Translations under genes and position numbers: made by a program | Assembly (NCBI GenBank): GCA_035250005.1 | Contig: DATFFM010000184.1 | Span: forward strand, 14,687 to 78,686 | Length of the DNA stretch: 64,000 nt | Direction: 5' to 3' | Source of the DNA: Vicinamibacterales bacterium | GTDB taxonomy: Bacteria; Acidobacteriota; Vicinamibacteria; Vicinamibacterales; 2-12-FULL-66-21 | Shown: positions 36,247 through 54,157 of the stretch, piece by piece | Position numbering within the stretch: position 1 is the stretch's first letter | How the letters are laid out: each line of letters opens with the position of its first letter | Notes under the pieces: generated by a model | What the model saw: the letters and a program-made list of their open reading frames with translations, nothing else | What the model was told of the DNA's origin: nothing | Databases searched by the model: none

Positions 36247-36337
36247 TGGCGGAGAGGGAGGGATTCGAACCCCCGTGCCGGTTACCCGACAAGACGCTTT
36301 CGAGGCGCCCCCGTTACGACCACTTCGGTACCTCTCC
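36247..36337 (-). tRNA. tRNA-Ser (anticodon CGA), encoded CCA
   Basis: The reverse complement folds as a cloverleaf. Acceptor GGAGAGG/CCTCTCC, anticodon stem GGCGC/GCGTC with loop CTCGAAA, long variable arm, T-loop TTCGAAT, 3' GCCA. Confidence 0.9.
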
Positions 36338-43773: not shown

Positions 43774-45615
43774 TCAGCGCAACCCGCCGCGCGTCGCTGA
43801 CGGGATCGTTGTCGCCGCGGCCCGATCAAGCCCGGCACCCACCTTCGCATACCCTGGCAGCTCGATCGGCAGCCGCCCGCCGATCGCGATCTCTCCAGCC
43901 AGCGCCTTCACCGCCGACGCTTCCGCGCGGTCGTAGAAGTCGTAGGTCAGCATCACCGCCGGCAGGTCCGGCATGTACATCGTCACGTAGGGATTGCCGA
44001 AGAAGACCGTCACGAACGGACGGCTGCCGCGGCTGAAGCCGTTCAGGAGCCGCTGCAGCGGCTCGGCGAGGTCCATGCGGCCGCTGGCGGAGCCCGCGCG
44101 CACGAAGATGGACGCGATGACCACGTCGTAGCGCGGCGCCATCGCGCGCACCAGCTCGAGCTCGGCGGGCGTCGTGCGGTCCGACAGCTCAATGGACGTC
44201 ACGTTCGGCCACCGCTTCCGCAGCTCGGGGATGAACGTGCGGCTCGGCGCCGCGATCCGCCAGCCCGACGGAAAGTCGAGCACCGAGAGATACAGCACCT
44301 GCGCGTCCCGCGGCGCCTTCAGCGGCACCTGGTTCCGCGTGTCCTTCAGCAGCGTGATCGACCGCTCGCTCACCTGGTCGGCCACCGCCTGGTTCTTCCG
44401 CGTCCCGACGACGGTGGAGATCTGGTCGAGATTGACCATCTTGTTGCGGTGCAGCCCGGCCCGCGCCTTGGCGCGCAGGATCCGCTGGACGGAGGCATTG
44501 ACCTGCGACTCCGGGATTTCTCCCGCCTTCACCGCATCGACGATCCCCTTGAACGCCGCCGCGTCGTCGGGCGAATGGAGGACCACGTCGTTGCCGGCCT
44601 TGACGGCGCGCACCGCCGCCTCGGACGGCGAGTAGATCGCCGCGACCCCGGCCATGCCCATGGAGTCGGTGTAGATCAGGCCGTCGAACCCGAGGTCCTT
44701 GCGCAGCAGCCCCTGCACGATCGGCGCGCTCAGCGTCGTCGGCGTCTTCGGCGTCGGATCGAGCTCCGGCAGCTCGATGTGCGCGGTCATGACCGCGTCG
44801 GCGCCGGCCGCGACGCCGGCACGGAACGGCACCAGCTCCATCTGCTCGAGCCGCGCCCGTGGATGCTTGATGATCGGCAGCCCCAGGTGGGAGTCCACGT
44901 CGGTGTCGCCGTGGCCGGGGAAGTGCTTCAGCGTGGCCGACACGCCGGCCGCCTGCATGCCGCGGATGTAGGCGGACGCCAGACGCCCCACCATCTGCGG
45001 ATCCTCGCCATAGGACCGCGTGTTGATGACCGGGTTGCGCGGATTGTTGTTCACGTCCACGACCGGCGCGAAGTTGACGTGCACGCCGAGCGCCCTGGCC
45101 TCTTCGCCCGTGACCCGCCCGGCCTCCTGAGCGAGCCGCTCGTCACGCGCCGCGCCGAACGCCATCAGCCGCGGGAACGCCGTGGCGCCGGCAATCCGGA
45201 ACCCGACGCCCGCTTCGAAATCGGCGGTGTTCAGCAGGGGCACCGGCGCGATCGCCTGCAGCCGGTTGACGATCGACGCCGCCTCCAGCGGCTGACCGAG
45301 CGTCACCGCGCCGTAGGTGGGATTGAGCAGGACGTTGGGGACGCGCTCGGAGCCGCCGAACAGATGAAACCCGCCGACCTTGTACTCGTGGACCGCTCTC
45401 ACCAGCTCGTCGAACTCCGCAGAGTCGGTGCTCAGGAAGGTCGTCGAAAAGGACGGCACGATCATCTGCCCGACCTTCTCCTCGACGCTCATCTTCTTCA
45501 GGGTGTCCTGCACCCACTTCTCGGCGCGGTTGTCGAGCGCCCGCGGCGGCTGAGCCGTCACCAGCCCGGTCACGATCGCCAATGCCCCGAGCGTCGGCAG
45601 CAGTCTGTAAAGCAT
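43774..45615 (-). CDS. glycoside hydrolase family 3 (beta-N-acetylhexosaminidase/beta-glucosidase-like), secreted
   Basis: Signal peptide. GH3 blocks: KHFPGHGDTDVDSH, SDSMGMAG-type nucleophile region (YTDSMGMAG), and a C-terminal alpha/beta sandwich domain. Confidence 0.9.
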   Translation of the reverse strand: MLYRLLPTLGALAIVTGLVTAQPPRALDNRAEKWVQDTLKKMSVEEKVGQMIVPSFSTTFLSTDSAEFDELVRAVHEYKVGGFHLFGGSERVPNVLLNPTYGAVTLGQPLEAASIVNRLQAIAPVPLLNTADFEAGVGFRIAGATAFPRLMAFGAARDERLAQEAGRVTGEEARALGVHVNFAPVVDVNNNPRNPVINTRSYGEDPQMVGRLASAYIRGMQAAGVSATLKHFPGHGDTDVDSHLGLPIIKHPRARLEQMELVPFRAGVAAGADAVMTAHIELPELDPTPKTPTTLSAPIVQGLLRKDLGFDGLIYTDSMGMAGVAAIYSPSEAAVRAVKAGNDVVLHSPDDAAAFKGIVDAVKAGEIPESQVNASVQRILRAKARAGLHRNKMVNLDQISTVVGTRKNQAVADQVSERSITLLKDTRNQVPLKAPRDAQVLYLSVLDFPSGWRIAAPSRTFIPELRKRWPNVTSIELSDRTTPAELELVRAMAPRYDVVIASIFVRAGSASGRMDLAEPLQRLLNGFSRGSRPFVTVFFGNPYVTMYMPDLPAVMLTYDFYDRAEASAVKALAGEIAIGGRLPIELPGYAKVGAGLDRAAATTIPSATRGGLR

Positions 45616-45677
45616 CCGGTCATCCTACCAGCATTGATCAGCGGGCGGGCCGCAGGCCCCACCCATATAATCAGCCT

Positions 45678-46175
45678 GTGTCGATCGAACAGCATCGGAA
45701 GGCGGCGCTGGCGTCGGTTCGCTGTTTCGTGCTCACGATCAGCGATACCCGCACCGAGGCGGACGACATCAGCGGAGACACGATCGTCGGGCTGCTCGGG
45801 GCGAACGGTCACGAGGTCAGATTGCGCGCTCTCGTGAAAGACGACCCGGCCGCGGTGCAGCACGCCCTGCGCGCGAACCTGGGAGTGGCGCAGGTGGTGA
45901 TCACGACCGGCGGCACCGGCATCACGTCGCGCGACAGCACCTACGAGGCGATGTCGCGGCTCCTCGACAAGCGGCTGGACGGCTTCGGCGAGCTGTTCCG
46001 GATGCTGAGCTTCCAGGAGGTCGGCTCCGCCGCCATGCTGTCACGCGCCTGCGCCGGCACGATCGGCCGCACCGCGGTCTTCTCGCTGCCGGGTTCCGAG
46101 CATGCCGTCCGCCTGGCGATGACCAGGCTGATCCTGCCAGAACTCGGCCATGTCGTCCGGGAGTTGAGTCGATGA
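45678..46175 (+). CDS. moaB: MoaB/Mog-family molybdenum cofactor biosynthesis protein
   Basis: VITTGGTGITSRD and SLPGSEHAV blocks. GTG start at 45678, preceded by TATAAT 7 nt upstream. Confidence 0.85.
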   Translation: MSIEQHRKAALASVRCFVLTISDTRTEADDISGDTIVGLLGANGHEVRLRALVKDDPAAVQHALRANLGVAQVVITTGGTGITSRDSTYEAMSRLLDKRLDGFGELFRMLSFQEVGSAAMLSRACAGTIGRTAVFSLPGSEHAVRLAMTRLILPELGHVVRELSR

Positions 46176-46194
46176 CGGTGCAGGGGCTAGGGCG

Positions 46195-47412
46195 ATGAGG
46201 ACGATGCGGCCGATCCGCGAGACGCTGCCGATGGACGAAGCGCTCGCGCTGGTTAACGAAGCAGCGCGGCCGACGACCCGAACCGAGCGGGTGTCGGTCC
46301 GCGAGGCGACCGGACGCGTGATCGCGGCCGCCGCGGTCGCGGCGGTGGATGTGCCCCCCTTCGACCGGGCCGCCATGGACGGCTACGCGGTCATCGCCTC
46401 GGATACGTTCGGCGCCGGCCGATACGAGCCGAAGCTGCTGCGCTGCATCGAGAAGGTCTATACCGGCGAAGTCCCGACACGGTCGCTCTCGCCCGGCGAG
46501 TGCATCGAGATCGCCACCGGCGCGCCGATGCCGGGCGGCGCCGACGCCGTGGTGATGGTCGAGGAGACCGAAAAAGCCGATGCCGACGGCGTCCGCATCT
46601 TCACCCCGGTGTACCCGCGGCAGCACGTGGGCCGCCGGGCGGCCGACATCGCGGTGGGCCAGGCGCTGCTCTCGGACGGCGCCGTCCTGAACGCGAGTCG
46701 CATCGGCGCGCTCGCCGCCGTCGGCGTGATCGAGGTGGAGGTCTACGCCCGGCCGAGGGTCGCGGTGCTCTCCACCGGCAACGAGATCATCGAGCCGGGC
46801 AGGCCGCTCGGGCCTGGACAGATCTACGACATCAACCAGTTCACGATCACGTCGATCGTCTCGTCGCATGGCGGCGTCGCCATCGCGCACCCGCCCGCGC
46901 CCGACAACCTCAAGGACCTCGTGACCGCCATCCGGAGCGCCGCCGATGCCGACATCGTCGTGTTCTCGGGCGGCAGCTCGGTCGGCGAGCGCGATCTGAT
47001 CCTCGATGCGATCCGCCAGATCGGCGAAGTGATCTTCCACGGGATCGCGGTGAAGCCGGGCAAGCCCACGGTCTTCGGCCAGGTGGACGGGACGCCGGTG
47101 TTCGGGATGCCCGGATACCCGACCTCGTGTCTCTCCAACGCGTACATGCTGCTCGTGCCGATGCTCCGCCGGATCGCCCGGCTGCCGGAATACACGCCGC
47201 GCACCGTCACGGCGCCGCTCGCGCGGCGGATCGTCTCGACAACGGGGCGGCACCAGTTCTATACCGTCCGGCTCGCCGGCGGCTCGGCCGTCCCGGCCTT
47301 CAAGGCCTCCGGCGACATCACGAGCATGTCGCTCGCGGACGGCTACATCGAGATCCCGGCGCAGACCGATATCGTCGAGGCCGGCGAAATGGTGGAAGTG
47401 AAGCTGTTCTGA
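46195..47412 (+). CDS. moeA: molybdopterin molybdotransferase
   Basis: MoeA blocks: PPFDRAAMDGYAV, VLSTGNEI, FSGGSSVGERD, GIAVKPGKP, GMPGYPTS. Confidence 0.9.
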   Translation: MRTMRPIRETLPMDEALALVNEAARPTTRTERVSVREATGRVIAAAAVAAVDVPPFDRAAMDGYAVIASDTFGAGRYEPKLLRCIEKVYTGEVPTRSLSPGECIEIATGAPMPGGADAVVMVEETEKADADGVRIFTPVYPRQHVGRRAADIAVGQALLSDGAVLNASRIGALAAVGVIEVEVYARPRVAVLSTGNEIIEPGRPLGPGQIYDINQFTITSIVSSHGGVAIAHPPAPDNLKDLVTAIRSAADADIVVFSGGSSVGERDLILDAIRQIGEVIFHGIAVKPGKPTVFGQVDGTPVFGMPGYPTSCLSNAYMLLVPMLRRIARLPEYTPRTVTAPLARRIVSTTGRHQFYTVRLAGGSAVPAFKASGDITSMSLADGYIEIPAQTDIVEAGEMVEVKLF

Positions 47413-47427
47413 CCCGGTGACACGTCA

Positions 47428-47910
47428 ATGTCTCACGCATCGCCGCTGACCACCGCTCCGCCGTTCGAGCTGCCGACGCAGAAGGGGGAGATGCGCTCGC
47501 TTGCCGGGTTCCTTGCGAACGGGACGGTGCTGCTGGCCTTTCACCGCGGCACCTGGTGACCGAATTGCCGAAGCCGGTTCGGTGAGCTGGCACGACACGC
47601 GAAAACCTATGACGCGCTCGGCGCGCAGGTGGTGGCGGTCGTGGCGCAGAAGTCCGAGGCCGTCCGGCGCTACGTCGAGGAGACGGGGCTGCCCTTCAAC
47701 ATCCTGGTGGATGAGTCGCGTGACGTGCTGAGGGCCTACGGCGTGTGGCACCGGATCGGGCTCGACGCGTTGAACATCGCCAGACCGGCACTCTTCCTCG
47801 TGGACCGAGCCAGCCGGATCCGCTTCTCGTTCGTCGCGGACCGGCAGCACGAGTTCCCGGGGCACGACGAGATCCTCGCCGCCATCGAGACACTGAACGC
47901 GCAGCCATGA
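47428..47910 (+). CDS. peroxiredoxin-like (AhpC/TSA, WCPxC-type) thiol oxidoreductase with in-frame TGA (candidate selenocysteine) at 47557-47559
   Basis: - The ATG at 47428 opens a 43-codon frame ending ...VLLAFHRGTW.
- TGA follows, then PNCRSRFGELARH..., in frame with track ORF 47629-47910.
- The motif reads W-[TGA]-P-N-C, where homologues have WCPxC.
- A hairpin follows directly after the TGA. Confidence 0.7.
47560..47582 (+). promoter_or_regulatory. candidate bacterial SECIS-like hairpin
   Basis: CCGAAUUG-CCGAAGC-CGGUUCGG: an 8-bp stem (two G-U pairs) and a 7-nt loop containing G, starting at the first nucleotide after the UGA. Confidence 0.4.
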
Positions 47911-48674
47911 TCGAGACCCACGACCTCCGGCGGGATTACGGCAAGACCACCGCTCTCCACGACTTGACGCTGCGCGTGAACCCGGGCGAGATCCTCGGCT
48001 TTCTTGGGCCCAACGGCGCCGGCAAATCCACCACGGTGAAGATCCTCGCCGGGATGCTCAAGCCGACGGCGGGCCGCGCCACGGTGGCGGGCTTCGATGT
48101 CGCGACCCAGGCCGTCGAGGTCAAGCGCCGCATGGGATACGTACCTGAGGCTGCCGTCCTTTACGACGCGCTCACGGCGCGTGAATACCTGCAGCTGGTC
48201 GCCTCGCTGCATCACCAGCCGTTCGACGAGGCCCGCCGGCGGATCGGCGAGCTGCTCGAGCAGCTGGATCTCTCGGCGGCCATGGACCAGCGCCTGGGGG
48301 AATTCTCGAAGGGCATGCGGCAGAAGGTCCTCATCGCCTCTGCGCTGCTGCACCGCCCGGACGTGGTCTTTCTCGACGAGCCCTTGACCGGGCTCGACGC
48401 CAACGCCGCGCTCATCGTCAAGGAGCTGATCCGCAGCCTCGCGGCACAGGGGCGAACCATCTTTTTCTGCTCCCATGTGCTCGAGGTCGTCGAGCGCATA
48501 TGCGCCCGGATCGTCATCATCGACAAGGGGCGGGTGGTGGCGGACGGCACCTCCGGCGACATCGCCGCCAACACGGGGACGACCTCGCTCGAAGCGGCGT
48601 TCATCGCGCTCACCGGCAGCCGCGACACCGCCCAGGTCACGCAGGACCTCCTTCGTTCGTTCGGCGACCGATGA
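47907..48674 (+). CDS. ABC transporter ATP-binding protein (ABC-2/DrrA-like)
   Basis: Walker A GPNGAGKST, signature FSKGMRQK, Walker B VVFLDEP. The ATG overlaps the upstream stop (ATGA at 47907-47910). Confidence 0.9.
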   Translation: MIETHDLRRDYGKTTALHDLTLRVNPGEILGFLGPNGAGKSTTVKILAGMLKPTAGRATVAGFDVATQAVEVKRRMGYVPEAAVLYDALTAREYLQLVASLHHQPFDEARRRIGELLEQLDLSAAMDQRLGEFSKGMRQKVLIASALLHRPDVVFLDEPLTGLDANAALIVKELIRSLAAQGRTIFFCSHVLEVVERICARIVIIDKGRVVADGTSGDIAANTGTTSLEAAFIALTGSRDTAQVTQDLLRSFGDR

Positions 48675-50284
48675 CAGGCCTGCTCGCGGCCGCCGGCATC
48701 GACCCGGTTCAGTGGCGCTCGCTGACAGTGGCCTACCTGCGCATGGATCTGCGGCGCGGCGGCGGCGCCTTGCGGAAGGACTCGCAGAAGAGCGCGTCGG
48801 CGCTGTCGCTGGCCGGTCTGCTGGTGGGTGCGGCGATCAATTCCGTGGTGATCGCGCTGCTCGTGTTTCTCATCCGCGACCCGTTGACCGCCGCGGTCGG
48901 CATGGTGACGATGGCGACCATGACCATCTCGATGCTGCTGTTGCTCGACTTCACCGGCTCGGTGATTTCTGCCGAGGATTACTGGGTCATTGCACCGCGT
49001 CCGGTGACGTCCCGCACCTACTTCGCCGCGCGGCTGTCGGCCGTGCTCGTCTACGTCATCGGTTTCTCACTGGTCCTGTCATTCATGCCCGGGCTCGTCT
49101 TCCTCGCGTGGCATCGCCTGGGCGTCGGGGCGTTCGCCGGAGCACTCGCCGCGACCGTGCTGTCGGCGGTCGCCGGCTCCGCCGTCGTCATCGCCGCGTA
49201 TACCTACCTGATCGCGCGGATTGCACCGTCGCGTCTCGTGCGCGTCATGAGCGGCGTCCACCTCTTCGCCTCCGTCCTGTCGATGGCGGGGTTCCTCGTC
49301 GTGATGAAAGGCTTCGAGAACGCGACCGTCCGCGAGTATTCGCTCGGCGATCTGGCGTGGATCTGGTACGTGCCGGTGACATGGTTCGCGGCCATCGTGC
49401 CGGTCCTGGGCGGGACCGGCAGTGGGCGCGAGATGCTGGCCGCGGCCGGCGCCACGCTCCTGACCCCGATCCTCCTGTCGCTCGCGTGCGGCCGTATCAC
49501 GCTGGAGTTTGCGTCGCACCTGTCGGAGGCCACGTCATCCGGGCCTGCCAGAAGTCGCAGAACCATCGAGCGGATCCCGGGCTTCTCCCGGGGAGAAGCC
49601 TACGCCGTGGCTACCCTCGTGCGCGCCCAGTTCCGCAACGACTTGCGGTTCCGGCTCGGGATTCTCGGGATCCTCCCGATGACGGCGTTCTATCTGTTCC
49701 TCGGGTGGGACGAGGGGCTGTGGACGGATCCGTTTGCCGTCAGGGCCAAAGGCGGCGGGGCGCCCGTGTACATGGCGCTCGCGTTCTTGCCGATGATCCT
49801 CCACAGCGCACTCCAGGTGTCGGACCACTGGCGGGCGTCGTGGATCTTTCTGGCGACGCCGGCGGATCCCGCCCGGCTGCTGGTCGCGACGAAGAATTTC
49901 GTGGCGATCTTCGTGCTCGGCTCGTATCTGCTTCTGATGGCGGGCTTCTGGACGATGTTCTACGAGCGCGTCTGGCACGCGCTGGTCCATGCGCTGTTCG
50001 TGGGCGCGGGCGCGCACATGCTGCTGCAGGCCTCCGTCATCCTGAGCCCCGGGCTGCCGTTCGCGAAAGAGCCGAAGCGCACGGAGCAGTCCGGCCGGTT
50101 GTTCTTCCTGCTGTTCGTCGGGATGCTCTTCACGTCGCTCGGCCCGGCGCTCCTCCCGTTCGTCTACAGCAGCGCGGCACGCACGATCGCGCTGGCGGCC
50201 GTGCTGGCGGCGGTCACCGCCGTTCTCGAACGGACGCTGCACCGCCGCGCACGGGCCTTCACCGCGGAGCTCGAAATGGCGTAG
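48671..50284 (+). CDS. polytopic membrane protein, probable permease partner of the ABC ATPase
   Basis: More than 10 hydrophobic helices. The ATG at 48671 overlaps the ATPase stop (ATGA). No conserved motif recognised. Confidence 0.65.
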   Translation: MTGLLAAAGIDPVQWRSLTVAYLRMDLRRGGGALRKDSQKSASALSLAGLLVGAAINSVVIALLVFLIRDPLTAAVGMVTMATMTISMLLLLDFTGSVISAEDYWVIAPRPVTSRTYFAARLSAVLVYVIGFSLVLSFMPGLVFLAWHRLGVGAFAGALAATVLSAVAGSAVVIAAYTYLIARIAPSRLVRVMSGVHLFASVLSMAGFLVVMKGFENATVREYSLGDLAWIWYVPVTWFAAIVPVLGGTGSGREMLAAAGATLLTPILLSLACGRITLEFASHLSEATSSGPARSRRTIERIPGFSRGEAYAVATLVRAQFRNDLRFRLGILGILPMTAFYLFLGWDEGLWTDPFAVRAKGGGAPVYMALAFLPMILHSALQVSDHWRASWIFLATPADPARLLVATKNFVAIFVLGSYLLLMAGFWTMFYERVWHALVHALFVGAGAHMLLQASVILSPGLPFAKEPKRTEQSGRLFFLLFVGMLFTSLGPALLPFVYSSAARTIALAAVLAAVTAVLERTLHRRARAFTAELEMA

Positions 50285-50290
50285 CGGGGG

Positions 50291-50890
50291 CTACTTGAAC
50301 CGCTTGTTCACCGCATCCCAGTTGACGACGTTCCACCACGCCGTGATGTAGTCGGGGCGGCGGTTCTGGTACTTCAGGTAATAGGCATGCTCCCAGACGT
50401 CGAGGCCGAGGATCGGCTTCTTGCCCTCCATCAGCGGGCTGTCCTGGTTCGCGGTGCTCTCGATCACCAGCTTGCCGCCGGCGTCCAGCAGCCAGGCCCA
50501 GCCGCTGCCGAAGCGGGTCGTCGCGGCCTTGGCGAACTGCTCCTTGAAGCTGTCGAAGGTGTTGAACGACGACTTGATCGCGTCGCCGATCGCGCCGGTC
50601 GGCTGGCCGCCCTTGCCGGGGCCCATGATCTCCCAGAACAGCGTGTGGTTGACGTGGCCGCCGCCGTTGTTGCGGACCGCCGTCCTGATGTCTTCGGGCA
50701 CGCTGTTGATCCCCTTGATCAGGTCCGCCGCGCTCTTCTGCTGAAGGTCGGGATGCTTCTCGATCGCGGCGTTGAGGTTGTTCACGTACGCCGCGTGATG
50801 CTTATCGTGATGGATCCGCATCGTCTGTTCGTCGATGTGCGGCTCCAGCGCGTTGTAGTCATACGGAAGCGGCGGGACTTCATGAGCCAT
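50291..50890 (-). CDS. Fe/Mn superoxide dismutase
   Basis: [22 protein letters not shown] and [18 protein letters not shown] signature. Confidence 0.95.
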
Positions 50891-50916
50891 CTCTGCTGTC
50901 TCCTTCTGTCGTCATT

Positions 50917-51009
50917 GGGGTCAGAGCTTGAATTTGTCGGGTCCTGAGAAATCATGCCAGCAATCTTGGCACCAAAAAAATGGCGGCGACAAATTCAAGC
51001 TCTGACCCC
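50917..51009. repeat. 93-bp palindromic element with GGGGTCAGA termini (variant arms GGGGTCAGAGCTTGAATTTGTCG)
   Basis: Perfect 23-nt arms. It shares the terminal TTGGGGTCAGA...TCTGACCCCAA with the copies at 17064 and 31915. Its right arm encodes the last four codons (GVRA) and the TGA of nadA. Confidence 0.9.
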
Positions 51010-52155
51010 CAACATCCGATCCAGCGCCAGCCGGGCGCCGCGCTTCTGATCCTCCGGGACGATGATCTGGTTGTGGATCGTGCCCTCGACCAGCCCCTCG
51101 AGGATCCACAGCAGGTGGTTGGGCGACACCCGGAACATCGTCGAGCACAGGCAGCCGAACGGATCGAGCGTCACGATCCTCTTGTCGGGTGCGAATTCGT
51201 TCGTGAGCCGGTTCACGAGGTGGACCTCGGTGGCCACCGCCCAGGTCGTGCCCGGCGGGCTGTTCTTCACGGCGTTGATGATGTACTCCGTGGAGCCGCT
51301 GTCATCGGACGCCTGCACCACGTCGAGCGTGCACTCCGGATGCGCGATGACCTTGCCCTCCGGATACTGCTTGCGGAACGCGTCGATCTGCTGGGTGGTG
51401 AAGCGCGTGTGAACCGAGCAGTGCCCCTTCCACAGGATCAGTCGGGCCTTCTGCAGCTGCTCCGCGGCGACGCCGCCCCACATCTCGTGGGGATCCCATA
51501 CAACCATCTCCGCGAGCGGGACACCCATCTTCCAGCCGGTATTGCGGCCCAGGTGCTGATCGGGCAGCATCAGCAGCTTCTCCCCGCGCTCCCACGCCCA
51601 CGTCATGACGGCGGCGGCGTTGGTCGAGGTGCAGACGATCCCGCCGTGGGCGCCCACGAACGCTTTGATGGCGGCGGACGAATTGATGTAGGTGACCGGG
51701 ACGATGCCCTGGCGTCCGTTCTCGACGGCGTCGGTGCGGATGCCCATCTGCTCGAGCTCGCGCCACGCGATCTCGAGCTGATCGGGCGCTGCCATGTCGG
51801 CCATGGAGCAGCCGGCCGCAAGGTCCGGCAGCACGACCTTCTGGTGCGGCGCCCGCAGGATGTCGGCGCTCTCGGCCATGAAATGGACGCCGCAGAAGAC
51901 GATGAATTCGGCCTCGTGCTTCGTGGCCGCGGCGCGCGCGAGCTTGAGCGAGTCGCCGGTGAAGTCGGCGAACTTGATGACCTCATCGCGCTGATAGTGA
52001 TGGCCCAGGATCACGACGCGGCTGCCGAGCGCCCGCTTGGCAGCCGCGATCCGCTCGTCCATCTCGTCGTCCGACAGACGCAGGTATTTCTCCGGGAGCG
52101 GCTGGCGCTCGCCGATGCTCTCCTTTTCGACCTGGTTCAGTAATTTGATGTCCAT
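50995..52155 (-). CDS. nadA: quinolinate synthase
   Basis: NadA blocks: ILGHHYQRDEVIKFADFTGDSLKLA, CGVHFMAESADIL, AGCSMADM, AHPEC, CSTM. Confidence 0.92.
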   Translation of the reverse strand: MDIKLLNQVEKESIGERQPLPEKYLRLSDDEMDERIAAAKRALGSRVVILGHHYQRDEVIKFADFTGDSLKLARAAATKHEAEFIVFCGVHFMAESADILRAPHQKVVLPDLAAGCSMADMAAPDQLEIAWRELEQMGIRTDAVENGRQGIVPVTYINSSAAIKAFVGAHGGIVCTSTNAAAVMTWAWERGEKLLMLPDQHLGRNTGWKMGVPLAEMVVWDPHEMWGGVAAEQLQKARLILWKGHCSVHTRFTTQQIDAFRKQYPEGKVIAHPECTLDVVQASDDSGSTEYIINAVKNSPPGTTWAVATEVHLVNRLTNEFAPDKRIVTLDPFGCLCSTMFRVSPNHLLWILEGLVEGTIHNQIIVPEDQKRGARLALDRMLGVRA

Positions 52156-53785: not shown

Positions 53786-53853
53786 CAACTTTTATTTTAG
53801 GTGATATTCTCGTCAGGCAACTGACGAGGAGCCGGCTCGCACGAACCGGCTCC

Positions 53854-54035
53854 GCCCGGCGGTCATGGAAGTGGGTGCAATGCCCACGCGGTGCCGCCAC
53901 TGTAAGCAGGGAGTGCGTTCCCTCGTCTGCGCTCACGTTCGGTGAGCTCAGGCGGCAGAAGCCACTGTGCAGCAATGCATGGGAAGGCAGGGAACGCCGA
54001 ACAGACCTGCGAGCCAGGATACCTGGCTGCCGGGC
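53854..54035 (+). promoter_or_regulatory. cobalamin (B12) riboswitch aptamer
   Basis: - GGAAGTGGGTGCAATGCCCACGCGGTGCCGCCACTGTAAGC matches the conserved core.
- AGCCACTG...GGGAAGGC box present.
- B12-box-like GAGCCAGGATACCTGGC present.
- P1 candidate GCCCGGC (53854-53860) pairs with GCCGGGC (54029-54035).
- It sits upstream of a btuB-like receptor. Confidence 0.75.
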
Positions 54036-54157
54036 TGGTCTCGCCCAAGCCGCCATTGACGGCGGCCGGCGGACCTGTCTCGCCGAAGCCGCGGTTTGTC
54101 GCGGCGAAGGCGGACCGTCCTTTTCCACGGCGCGTTACACGCCGCAAAGGAGCCCGC

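Follow-up and report, generated by a model that had tools for sequence, protein, structure and literature searches.

A conserved in-frame UGA and downstream hairpin point to a selenoprotein clade of Prx-like oxidoreductases in soil Acidobacteriota

Introduction

Proteins of pfam00578 with a UxxC or UxxU motif constitute a predicted bacterial selenoprotein family, the 'Prx-like thiol:disulfide oxidoreductase' (PMC9312934; PMC1794560), with members predicted in Geobacter, Syntrophus, Desulfotalea and others (Zhang and Gladyshev; PMC1794560, PMC9312934). A sequence-only reading of the locus described here had cited as precedent the replacement of Cys by selenocysteine (Sec) in the UxxC motif of Prx-like oxidoreductases elsewhere, and this family is indeed listed (PMC9312934, PMC1794560). 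Sec-using Acidobacteria have already been documented, and a literature search on Vicinamibacter and selenocysteine found nothing relevant.

Here, we analyse a 64-kb stretch of Vicinamibacterales DNA (the window) for which the sequence-only reading had proposed a selenoprotein gene that ORF calling divides, Sec taking the place of the first Cys in a WCPxC motif. Comparative data now lend this proposal strong support. Positions 47428–47910 very probably form one gene, prxU, encoding a cytoplasmic thioredoxin-fold Prx-like oxidoreductase of 160 residues, with UGA decoded as Sec via a SECIS element at 47573–47591. Both the kind of protein and the recoding mechanism are already well known; the clade is new, and its sequences suggest that it is a widespread branch of the Prx-like thiol:disulfide oxidoreductase family.

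Results

Reading frame of prxU

The prxU frame (47428–47910, + strand; 160 codons including Sec44) is open from the ATG at 47428 to the terminal TGA at 47908–47910, and its sole in-frame interruption is the TGA at 47557–47559, as had been described previously. The translation around this codon reads ...LLAFHRGTW*PNCRSRFGEL.... Pfam AhpC-TSA (PF00578) matches residues 9–133 in a single stretch across the TGA (E 6e-26), which argues for one protein rather than two; both halves thus belong to one family, and the earlier view of a continuous AhpC/TSA-type protein holds. In the public gene call for the source contig, prxU is split into products of 43 and 89 amino acids.

Conservation of the TGA codon

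Alignment with Cys homologues places the TGA column at the invariant Cys44 of FHRGTW-C-PNC-R in 19 of 19 sequences, confirming its assignment to the first redox-active Cys. An exact-pattern scan, using a 27-nt degenerate pattern against 596 Gb, identified at least 119 species-level genomes with HRGTW-TGA-PNC, nearly all of them Vicinamibacterales/Acidobacteriota, against a chance expectation that we calculate as ~0.1–0.2 matches. With the same pattern and TGH at the codon, the first 120 metagenome matches comprised 109 TGA and 11 TGY forms, so orthologues from both sources share the codon. All sequences compared are of metagenome or MAG origin. The eight nearest relatives of the window protein (74–81% identity) all carry TGA and the hairpin is conserved, the opposite of the TGC codon and unconserved hairpin that a recent lesion would predict. 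The base following UGA is C in 210/210 sequences.

Selection acts on both sides of the codon. No further stop is present in the 34 + 90 flanking codons of 206 of the 229 Sec-type sequences, and NG86 dN/dS is 0.31 upstream and 0.30 downstream of the TGA, indicating purifying selection on both halves. These data bear directly on the idea that the TGA is a nonsense mutation, a pseudogene lesion or an assembly error, with only the 47629–47910 fragment, or nothing, expressed. The split of prxU by gene callers and the lack of Sec machinery in the DNA examined would fit such a lesion, but the same TGA in at least 119 independent species genomes and 109 metagenome contigs, a dN/dS of ~0.3 on either side and its presence in all the closest relatives effectively refute it, and we consider it scarcely credible. 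General reassignment of TGA to a sense codon in this lineage has nothing in its favour beyond the in-frame TGA itself. It is refuted by TGA serving as the stop codon of moeA, prxU and the ABC gene within the window, and of the gene preceding prxU in 112 of the 158 related loci, and by 47557–47559 being the only coding-like in-frame TGA in 64 kb; its probability is negligible. A scan of the related loci for further such codons likewise yielded nothing convincing. More than 200 related sequences from soil Acidobacteria share this TGA along with a conserved RNA hairpin.

A conserved hairpin downstream of the UGA

A probable SECIS hairpin was located at 47573–47591 (+ strand) on the basis of pair counts, shuffles and codon skew. 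It begins 13 nt after the UGA and consists of a 5' arm at 47573–47580 (GCCGGUUC), a GGU loop at 47581–47583 and a 3' arm at 47584–47591 (GAGCUGGC), forming eight pairs of which two are G-U/U-G. All eight pairs are present in 140/208 Sec sequences and in none of 10 Cys controls, a control set that is small (10–13 sequences); one Cys orthologue (L244) does retain the hairpin, which is hence not strictly exclusive to Sec forms. At this position 93.2% of cells are paired, compared with 15–47% when the structure is slid along the alignment, and 0/500 shuffles score as high. Changes at the C21–G29 pair (numbered with the U of UGA as 0) are compensatory in 12/12 cases.

Codon usage within the hairpin departs from the background of the same genes: GGT accounts for 77% vs 8%, GAA for 79% vs 33%, CGG for 95% vs 24% and GCA for 54% vs 7%. 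GGT, GAA and CTG co-occur in this region, with GAA accompanied by CTG in 131/131 cases. Fourteen divergent sequences encoding different peptides all have a hairpin at equal distance, and in their alignment 95% of cells are paired with a covariation score of 0.363 (0/500 shuffles as high). Across the set, the loop is found in one of several registers, with GGU at 24–26 (134/210), GUU at 20–22 (50/210) or AGUU at 28–31. Taken from sequence comparison, 47573–47591 is most likely the functional hairpin.

The folding energy of 47573–47591 is -11.8 kcal/mol, and mean energies are -11.8 kcal/mol for Sec forms vs -6.3 for Cys forms. Relative to synonymous-codon shuffles, the window hairpin has z = -1.04 with 20% of shuffles equally stable, and across sequences the hairpins are only modestly more stable than their shuffles (mean z = -0.9). 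A GC-rich sequence prone to hairpins is imposed by the RRRFGELA peptide itself. RNAalifold applied to 150 mixed sequences returned a trivial 3-bp structure and did not recover 47573–47591, while subsets and RIBOSUM scoring gave inconsistent answers; explicit pair counts were therefore used instead. No SECIS was recognised by Rfam, whether with gathering thresholds or with E ≤ 10; the matches obtained, such as ROSE_3, are attributable to chance.

The hairpin originally noticed starts at the first base after the TGA (47560–47582, + strand; CCGAA...UUCGG) and is mutually exclusive with 47573–47591. This fold can be drawn as described, at -10.9 kcal/mol, but it is not the conserved element, and folding of 47550–47620 (71 nt) gave z = -0.77, not beyond chance. 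It had also been cautioned that the loop lies closer to the UGA than in fdhF; the GGU loop of 47573–47591 is instead 3 nt further away than the GGUC loop of fdhF, which lifts this caution.

The upstream fold could nonetheless be considered as the SECIS in place of 47573–47591, given that it is the minimum-free-energy fold for many of the sequences, is the structure favoured by RNAalifold with RIBOSUM scoring, has 88.6% of cells paired and would allow U26 to pair with the A of the UGA. Against this, it is fully formed in only 93/208 sequences and is devoid of covariation, with 458/500 shuffles matching its percentage of paired cells and 392/500 its covariation score. Its central pair coincides with the third position of a Pro codon that is G, C or A as in background usage, leaving it unpaired in 55/150 sequences, and the preferences for GAA, CTG and GCA are not explained by this structure. 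Divergent subfamilies lack it, yet possess the downstream hairpin. When UGA occupies the A site, the first 10–12 nt on its 3' side lie within the ribosome, and the 5' arm of 47560–47582 would fall inside. We thus judge this fold unlikely to be the SECIS, and retain 47573–47591 as the candidate element.

Sec machinery and the identity of the inserted residue

The window, 77 kb of the 79-kb source contig and 1.4 Mb of related loci yielded no selA, selB, selD or tRNA-Sec gene; these cover a tiny fraction of each genome, and the result says little either way. This comprises an ARAGORN search for tRNA-Sec across the window and 240 loci, and tblastn of E. coli SelA, SelB and SelD against the 1.4 Mb; the 15 kb of source contig beyond the window likewise contain no sel genes. 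A 91-nt tRNA at 36247–36337 was considered as tRNA-Sec and rejected, as it is an ordinary tRNA-Ser(CGA).

Recoding of the UGA need not deliver Sec, or Sec only. Vargas-Rodriguez et al. reportedly described, in 2018, a tRNA(Sec)-like tRNA(Cys) ('tRNAReC') mechanism in other bacteria, and Cys could be inserted via such a SelB-delivered tRNA or, under selenium shortage, as Cys formed from thiophosphate on tRNA(Sec). Sec and Cys interconvert frequently in the prxU family, with ~10 changes on the tree including one large derived Cys clade of 105 members; Cys is thus functionally tolerated, and the Cys orthologue L244 keeps what would be a fossil hairpin. However, SelB and a SECIS would be needed all the same, and no tRNAReC-like tRNA was seen by ARAGORN in the window and 240 loci, which cover a minimal part of the genome. 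The long maintenance of TGA over TGY (109 vs 11 in the first 120 matches), together with the single large Cys clade, suggests that the TGA form offers something beyond Cys. Insertion of Cys is accordingly regarded as improbable, and Sec as the probable residue at position 44.

Genomic neighbourhood

On the + strand, prxU is preceded by moaB (molybdenum cofactor biosynthesis protein B; 45678–46175) and moeA (molybdopterin molybdenumtransferase, by Pfam match; 46195–47412), with the moeA stop 15 nt before the prxU start. The prxU start overlaps the moeA stop or lies ≤20 nt away in 115/158 loci, and of the 107 loci with a MoeA match, 106 have it next to prxU in the same orientation. Downstream in the window are a DrrA-like ABC ATPase (47907–48674, +) and a 537-residue putative membrane protein, its presumed partner, which has no Pfam or NCBIfam family (48671–50284, +), followed by a convergent sodA-type Fe/Mn superoxide dismutase (50291–50890, -). 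The sodA gene was found in 88 loci, and in most genomes directly follows prxU.

The sequence-only reading had placed prxU first in an overlapping three-gene operon with the ATPase and the membrane protein. The ATGA overlaps at 47907, with the prxU stop, and at 48671 are real; the conserved unit is instead moaB-moeA-prxU. Apart from the window, just one other genome has the ATPase directly after prxU; the ABC/membrane pair is a lineage-specific insertion into a conserved context of moaB-moeA-prxU plus convergent sodA. This arrangement suggests that prxU serves in redox protection or in defence against oxidative stress. A promoter and terminator scan of 45400–51200 gave no signal above shuffles.

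Fold and active site

The predicted active site is U44-P-N-C47, with Sec at the N-terminal Cys position of a thioredoxin-like CxxC motif and the resolving Cys47 encoded by TGC at 47566–47568 (+ strand). Sequence matches in the PDB are to BCP and ResA with active sites aligned, Cys47 corresponding to the peroxidatic Cys of BCP and to Cys77 of ResA. In the peroxiredoxin alignment, Sec44 occupies the Thr/Ser position of T/SxxCp and Thr42 is displaced, indicating that this is not a canonical Prx active site; phmmer alignment to 2cx3 shows the same departure from PxxxT/SxxCp, with Sec44 at the Ser position and Cys47 at Cp. When aligned with A. pernix BCP, the near-invariant Arg119 (ARP motif) falls one position away from the BCP Arg.

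An AlphaFold model of the closest Cys homologue, the orthologue P0001 (pLDDT 89), predicts a helix beginning at residue 45. The model suggests a Prx fold, its top PDB neighbours being Bcp4, BcpB and PrxQ (TM 0.76–0.85). The protein is without signal or anchor sequence.

Discussion

By analogy with E. coli fdhF, UGA 47557–47559 would be decoded by SelB carrying Sec-tRNA(Sec), recruited by the in-gene SECIS with its 8-bp stem and GGU loop 13 nt 3' of the UGA. With UGA in the A site, the competing 47560–47582 fold would be melted because the first 10–12 nt after the UGA are inside the ribosome, and the downstream hairpin would then be presented at the mRNA entrance. Family chemistry suggests that the U44 selenolate, located at the helix alpha1 N-cap, attacks its substrate, either a peroxide or an oxidised thiol, that Cys47 resolves the intermediate to form a selenenylsulfide, and that a thioredoxin-type reductant recycles the enzyme. 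We infer Sec insertion itself, SelB binding and the nature of the substrate; the conservation and selection of the TGA codon, the hairpin, the fold and the synteny are described directly above.

Two further ideas, taken together, are put forward as speculative and rather doubtful. The prxU SECIS may have drifted among at least three mutually exclusive registers (GGU, GUU and AGUU) within a conserved coding sequence, and the position of prxU as the last gene of its unit would imply a selenium-dependent redox step that is dedicated to protecting or serving Mo-cofactor assembly, for example by keeping the molybdopterin dithiolene reduced, rather than a generic peroxidase. Irrespective of function, the set of more than 200 sequences shows a bacterial SECIS co-evolving with its host protein, and may help to refine models of bacterial SECIS elements, which at present fail to detect 47573–47591.

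Vicinamibacteria are a dominant soil bacterial class, and nearly all sampled members end a presumably translationally coupled moaB-moeA-prxU unit with this probable selenoprotein gene. If the Sec assignment is true, a dominant soil lineage needs selenium for part of its redox defence, which bears on soil selenium ecology. Most sampled Vicinamibacterales have prxU, but MAG annotation, taking the TGA for a stop, systematically divides or misses the gene; protein databases therefore show Cys forms only, although the Sec form is ~10:1 commoner among the sampled pattern matches.

With the known Prx-like thiol:disulfide oxidoreductase selenoproteins, the prxU clade shares the AhpC/TSA domain, Sec as first residue of UxxC, the existence of Cys homologues and a hairpin after the UGA, as well as prediction by comparative genomics alone. 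In contrast to those proteins, known from anaerobic Deltaproteobacteria or Clostridia, it stems from aerobic-soil Vicinamibacterales/Acidobacteriota. It further differs in an invariant FHRGTW-U-PNC-R and a fixed moaB-moeA-prxU/sodA context.

The E. coli fdhF SECIS is likewise an in-gene hairpin just 3' of a UGA-C, with an apical loop that opens with GGU. In prxU, 10–13 nt separate the UGA from the presented stem, vs ~11 nt in fdhF, and the loop starts at 24 (GGU) vs 21 (GGUC, 21–24) from the U of UGA. The 47573–47591 hairpin thus has the apical-loop G-U ~20–25 nt from this U that typifies E. coli-type elements. Unlike fdhF, the GGU-loop (class I) hairpin of prxU has a perfect 8-bp stem, a 3-nt loop and no bulged U; it is a candidate SelB site.

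At the protein level, PrxQ/BCP proteins (A. pernix 2cx3 and S. solfataricus Bcp4, 3hjp) are the best neighbours by sequence (E 3e-12) and by predicted structure (TM 0.76–0.85), but the T/S of T/SxxCp is replaced by Sec in prxU, creating a thioredoxin-like UxxC. The ResA/TlpA-type proteins (B. subtilis ResA, 1su9/3c71) match the motif residue for residue (GTWCPHC vs GTWUPNC) and share the N-terminal nucleophile; ResA is, however, membrane-anchored and extracytoplasmic and functions in cytochrome c maturation, and the prxU fold is closer to PrxQ. The best NCBIfam match is the SelL-related redox protein NF040769, at 59.2 bits and hence below the 120 cut-off. SelL has a Prx-like2-type fold and a CxxC-type motif in common with prxU, while eukaryotic SelL contains two Sec residues, in UxxU, and prxU one. 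Finally, PrxU of Eubacterium acidaminophilum (NF040737) is also a Sec-containing member of the AhpC/TSA superfamily, to which prxU scores 17 bits vs a cut-off of 270; its Sec is the peroxidatic residue (TxxU), whereas the Sec described here is placed three residues upstream.

An in-frame TGA in prxU marks a conserved recoding site

The prxU gene (47428-47910, + strand, 160 codons) reads as one frame from the ATG at 47428 to the TGA at 47908-47910, interrupted once by the TGA at 47557-47559 (codon 44; ...VLLAFHRGTW*PNCRSRFGEL..., the asterisk marking the TGA). With Cys substituted for the stop, the product gives an unbroken match to Pfam AhpC-TSA over residues 9-133 (E 6e-26), with further matches to Redoxin and AhpC-TSA_2. 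Among 5.8 billion proteins searched, 1,031 are homologous to it; the best matches (64-77% identity, ~160 aa) are from Vicinamibacterales/Acidobacteriota, and alignment with 19 Cys homologues places the TGA at the invariant Cys of FHRGTW-C-PNC-R. Public gene calls on the source contig, ENA ERZ27257128 k141_1741019 (78,969 bp), cut prxU into 43 aa and 89 aa. Hence, frame, Pfam match, Cys column and split gene calls agree that the sequence-only reading was correct in proposing a single AhpC/TSA-type protein with TGA at the redox-active Cys, split by ORF calling.

A degenerate pattern for H-R-G-T-W-TGA-P-N-C was scanned against one genome per species (596 Gb) and found in at least 119 genomes, compared to a calculated ~0.1-0.2 chance matches. 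Among the matches listed, almost all genomes are MAGs with a Vicinamibacterales, Vicinamibacteria, Acidobacteria gp6 or Acidobacteriota label, and the loci whose translation was listed have an intact Prx-like frame interrupted only by this TGA. TGA is also the codon in each of the eight relatives closest to the window protein (74-81% identity), the nearest Cys form (TGC or TGT at codon 44) being less similar to it than these. Metagenome contigs were scanned with the same pattern, allowing TGH at the codon; the first 120 matches contain 109 TGA, 6 TGT and 5 TGC, the Sec form (TGA) being about ten times commoner than the Cys form among them. Only Cys forms are found in protein databases because Sec forms are split.

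No extra stop occurs within the 34 upstream and 90 downstream codons in 206/229 TGA-bearing sequences. NG86 dN/dS is 0.31 before and 0.30 after the TGA in a set of 154 unique ungapped sequences with pairwise amino-acid identities of 44-98%, and third codon positions hold most of the variation on both sides. The TGA conservation and the dN/dS of ~0.3 on either side exclude a pseudogene or an assembly error. General reassignment of TGA is also excluded, as TGA remains an ordinary stop in the window (ending moeA, prxU and the ABC gene) and no other coding-like in-frame TGA was found in these 64 kb; TGA furthermore ends the gene upstream of prxU in 112/158 related loci. Judged from sequence, the TGA at 47557-47559 is a conserved recoding site at the catalytic Cys position, the signature of selenocysteine.

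A conserved hairpin follows the TGA

The hairpin proposed to begin directly after the TGA (47560-47582) can form (-10.9 kcal/mol), but the local fold around the TGA is not significant (z = -0.77). This hairpin is complete in only 93/208 unique Sec sequences and displays no covariation, its value being matched by 458/500 shuffles of a 150-sequence alignment. Its central pair depends on the last base of the Pro codon, with usage (CCG 63%, CCC 28%, CCA 7%) at the background of 60/27/7. These results speak against it as the functional element.

A second hairpin, the probable SECIS, spans positions 16-34 (numbered from the U of UGA as 0), with the sequence GCC(G/A)GUUC-GGU-GAACUGGC; in the window it corresponds to 47573-47591, GCCGGUUC-GGU-GAGCUGGC (-11.8 kcal/mol). 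All eight pairs are present in 140/208 Sec sequences and in 0/10 Cys controls. Overall, 93.2% of cells are paired, compared to 15-47% with the 3' arm slid, and the covariation score is 0.114 (≤0.052 for slid versions), values reached by 0/500 shuffles. Replacement of Phe TTC by Leu CTC is always accompanied by Glu GAG, giving C21-G29 in 12/12 cases, which is a compensatory change. Synonymous sites in the hairpin are far from usage elsewhere in the same genes: Gly GGT accounts for 77% against a background of 8%, Glu GAA for 79% against 33%, Arg CGG for 95% against 24%, Leu CTG for 84% against 51% and Ala GCA for 54% against 7%. Cys forms have GGC/GGG, GAG and GCG at these codons. The apical GGU starts at position 24, compared to 21 for the GGUC of E. 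coli fdhF, which removes the earlier concern that the loop lies too close to the UGA.

By itself, folding stability supports the hairpin only weakly. Mean energies are -11.8 kcal/mol for Sec forms and -6.3 kcal/mol for Cys forms (Mann-Whitney p = 3e-4; just 9 Cys sequences), and shuffling of synonymous codons gives a mean z of only -0.9 (-1.04 for the window's own hairpin). RNAalifold missed the hairpin when run on the mixed alignment, and Rfam gave no match to it.

Mutual information reveals two linked codon states, and 210 unique sequences were sorted by hairpin class. Class I (8/8 pairs, loop GGU; 134/210) links GGT-GAA-CTG, CTG occurring with GAA in 131/131. Class II (50/210) combines GGC with GAC or GAG and has a GUU loop at positions 20-22; in its FGDLA subgroup the rare Arg codon CGT is found in 23/23, its U14 pairing with A28. 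A further 8/210 have 8/8 pairs with loop GGC, and 4/210 are of unclear class. The remaining 14/210 have a divergent peptide after PNC (e.g. RRIAQLRD), and all 14 form a 6-8 bp hairpin at positions ~20-39 with differing stems (UCGCGC/GCGCGA, CUGGCAC/GUGCCGG, CCUGGCC/GGCCGGG). In an alignment of ten of these, pairing extends to 95% of cells and the covariation score is 0.363 (≤0.081 slid), a level that 0/500 shuffles attain.

Directly 3' of the hairpin (alignment 35-37, window 47592-47594), the last base of the Ala codon is A in 54% of sequences (background 7%) and covaries with hairpin class. Neither hairpin model fully accounts for this A, for which U9 is a possible partner in a lower stem.

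Decoding of the UGA

No tRNA-Sec was detected in the window or 240 related loci, no SelA, SelB or SelD in 1.4 Mb of related loci, and no sel genes in the other 15 kb of the source contig, samples far too small to mean absence. Decoding of the UGA as Cys rather than Sec, via a tRNAReC-type route, would be an unlikely alternative.

A long tRNA found by ARAGORN at 36247-36337 (- strand, 91 nt) was rejected as tRNA-Sec and is tRNA-Ser(CGA); it scores 50 bits with RF00005 when searched alone and is missing from the whole-window Rfam gathering-threshold run because speed filters dropped it. Some 5-10 kb beyond the window end, the source contig (L248, 1703-22467) holds a Suf cluster for Fe-S assembly (SufBD, SufS-like, NifU, Rrf2 regulator) together with a second cysteine-desulfurase-like gene of the Aminotran_5 type, which could encode a selenocysteine lyase or a CsdA-type enzyme.

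Sec and Cys forms are orthologues

Cys forms share the moaB-moeA-prx-sodA-nadA context of the Sec forms, to which they are orthologous. One related locus (L244:3001-3477, ENA ERZ1700618 contig_EHDLDABF_68342) has TGC with an intact class I hairpin and GGT-GAA-CTG, apparently a fossil SECIS after a recent Sec-to-Cys change. A similar case, L230, belongs to the FGDLA subgroup and has one stem base altered. The hairpin is lost in the large RRKF Cys clade. An NJ tree of 311 unique sequences, indicative only given pattern-based sampling and a crude, quick method, contains one pure Cys clade of 105 and about 10 state changes, with Sec at the midpoint root.

Gene context of prxU

In 106/107 loci with a MoeA hit, prxU is directly preceded by moaB and moeA on its own strand. 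The prxU start overlaps the moeA stop or lies ≤20 nt away in 115/158 loci, 58 of these with -1 or -4 overlaps. In 88 loci a convergent sodA follows the prxU TGA by a few hundred bases to a few kb, mostly within about 1.2 kb.

The three-gene operon described earlier is present in the window, with ATGA overlaps at 47907 and 48671, but is not conserved: only there and in L075 is prxU directly followed by genes for a DrrA-like ABC ATPase and for a 537-aa protein without Pfam or NCBIfam family (77% and 48% identity, respectively). This pair (47907-50284, + strand) sits between prxU and sodA, is translationally coupled to prxU through the overlaps, and occurs in 1 other of about 100 related genomes.

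Two MAG loci labelled Bifidobacteriaceae (L012, CAYUPN010000163.1) and Actinomycetes (L095, CAWKDP010000012.1) carry, at 50-85% identity, the complete moaB-moeA-prxU-sodA-nadA synteny of the Vicinamibacterales type; these labels are probably binning errors. Elsewhere in the window, a cobalamin riboswitch (RF00174, 67 bits; 53844-54044, + strand) precedes a TonB-dependent receptor and FecCD/ABC/periplasmic-binding-protein operon, which looks like a B12 uptake locus.

Relation to known selenoproteins

The PDB sequence neighbours of the prxU product are PrxQ/BCP (2cx3, E 3e-12) and ResA. GTWCPHC of a ResA variant aligns with GTWUPNC, and in the BCP alignment Sec44 falls on the Ser/Thr of T/SxxCp and Cys47 on the peroxidatic Cys. 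Modelled with AlphaFold, the closest Cys orthologue has a Prx-type thioredoxin fold (pLDDT 89, pTM 0.88), with helix alpha1 beginning at residue 45, thus placing residue 44 at its N-cap. Its Foldseek neighbours are Bcp4, BcpB and PrxQ (TM 0.76-0.85), followed by ResA. The best NCBIfam model, 'SelL-related redox protein', scores 59 bits (cut-off 120), and the clade falls outside the curated models. Acidobacteria are on record as Sec users, with 3 families in 2006 (PMC1794560) and Occallatibacter reported in 2025; our literature search found nothing on selenocysteine in Vicinamibacteria. Given that Prx-like thiol:disulfide oxidoreductase selenoproteins have been known since 2005-2006, mainly from Deltaproteobacteria (PMC1794560, PMC9312934), the prxU group is a new, large clade of an already known selenoprotein kind.
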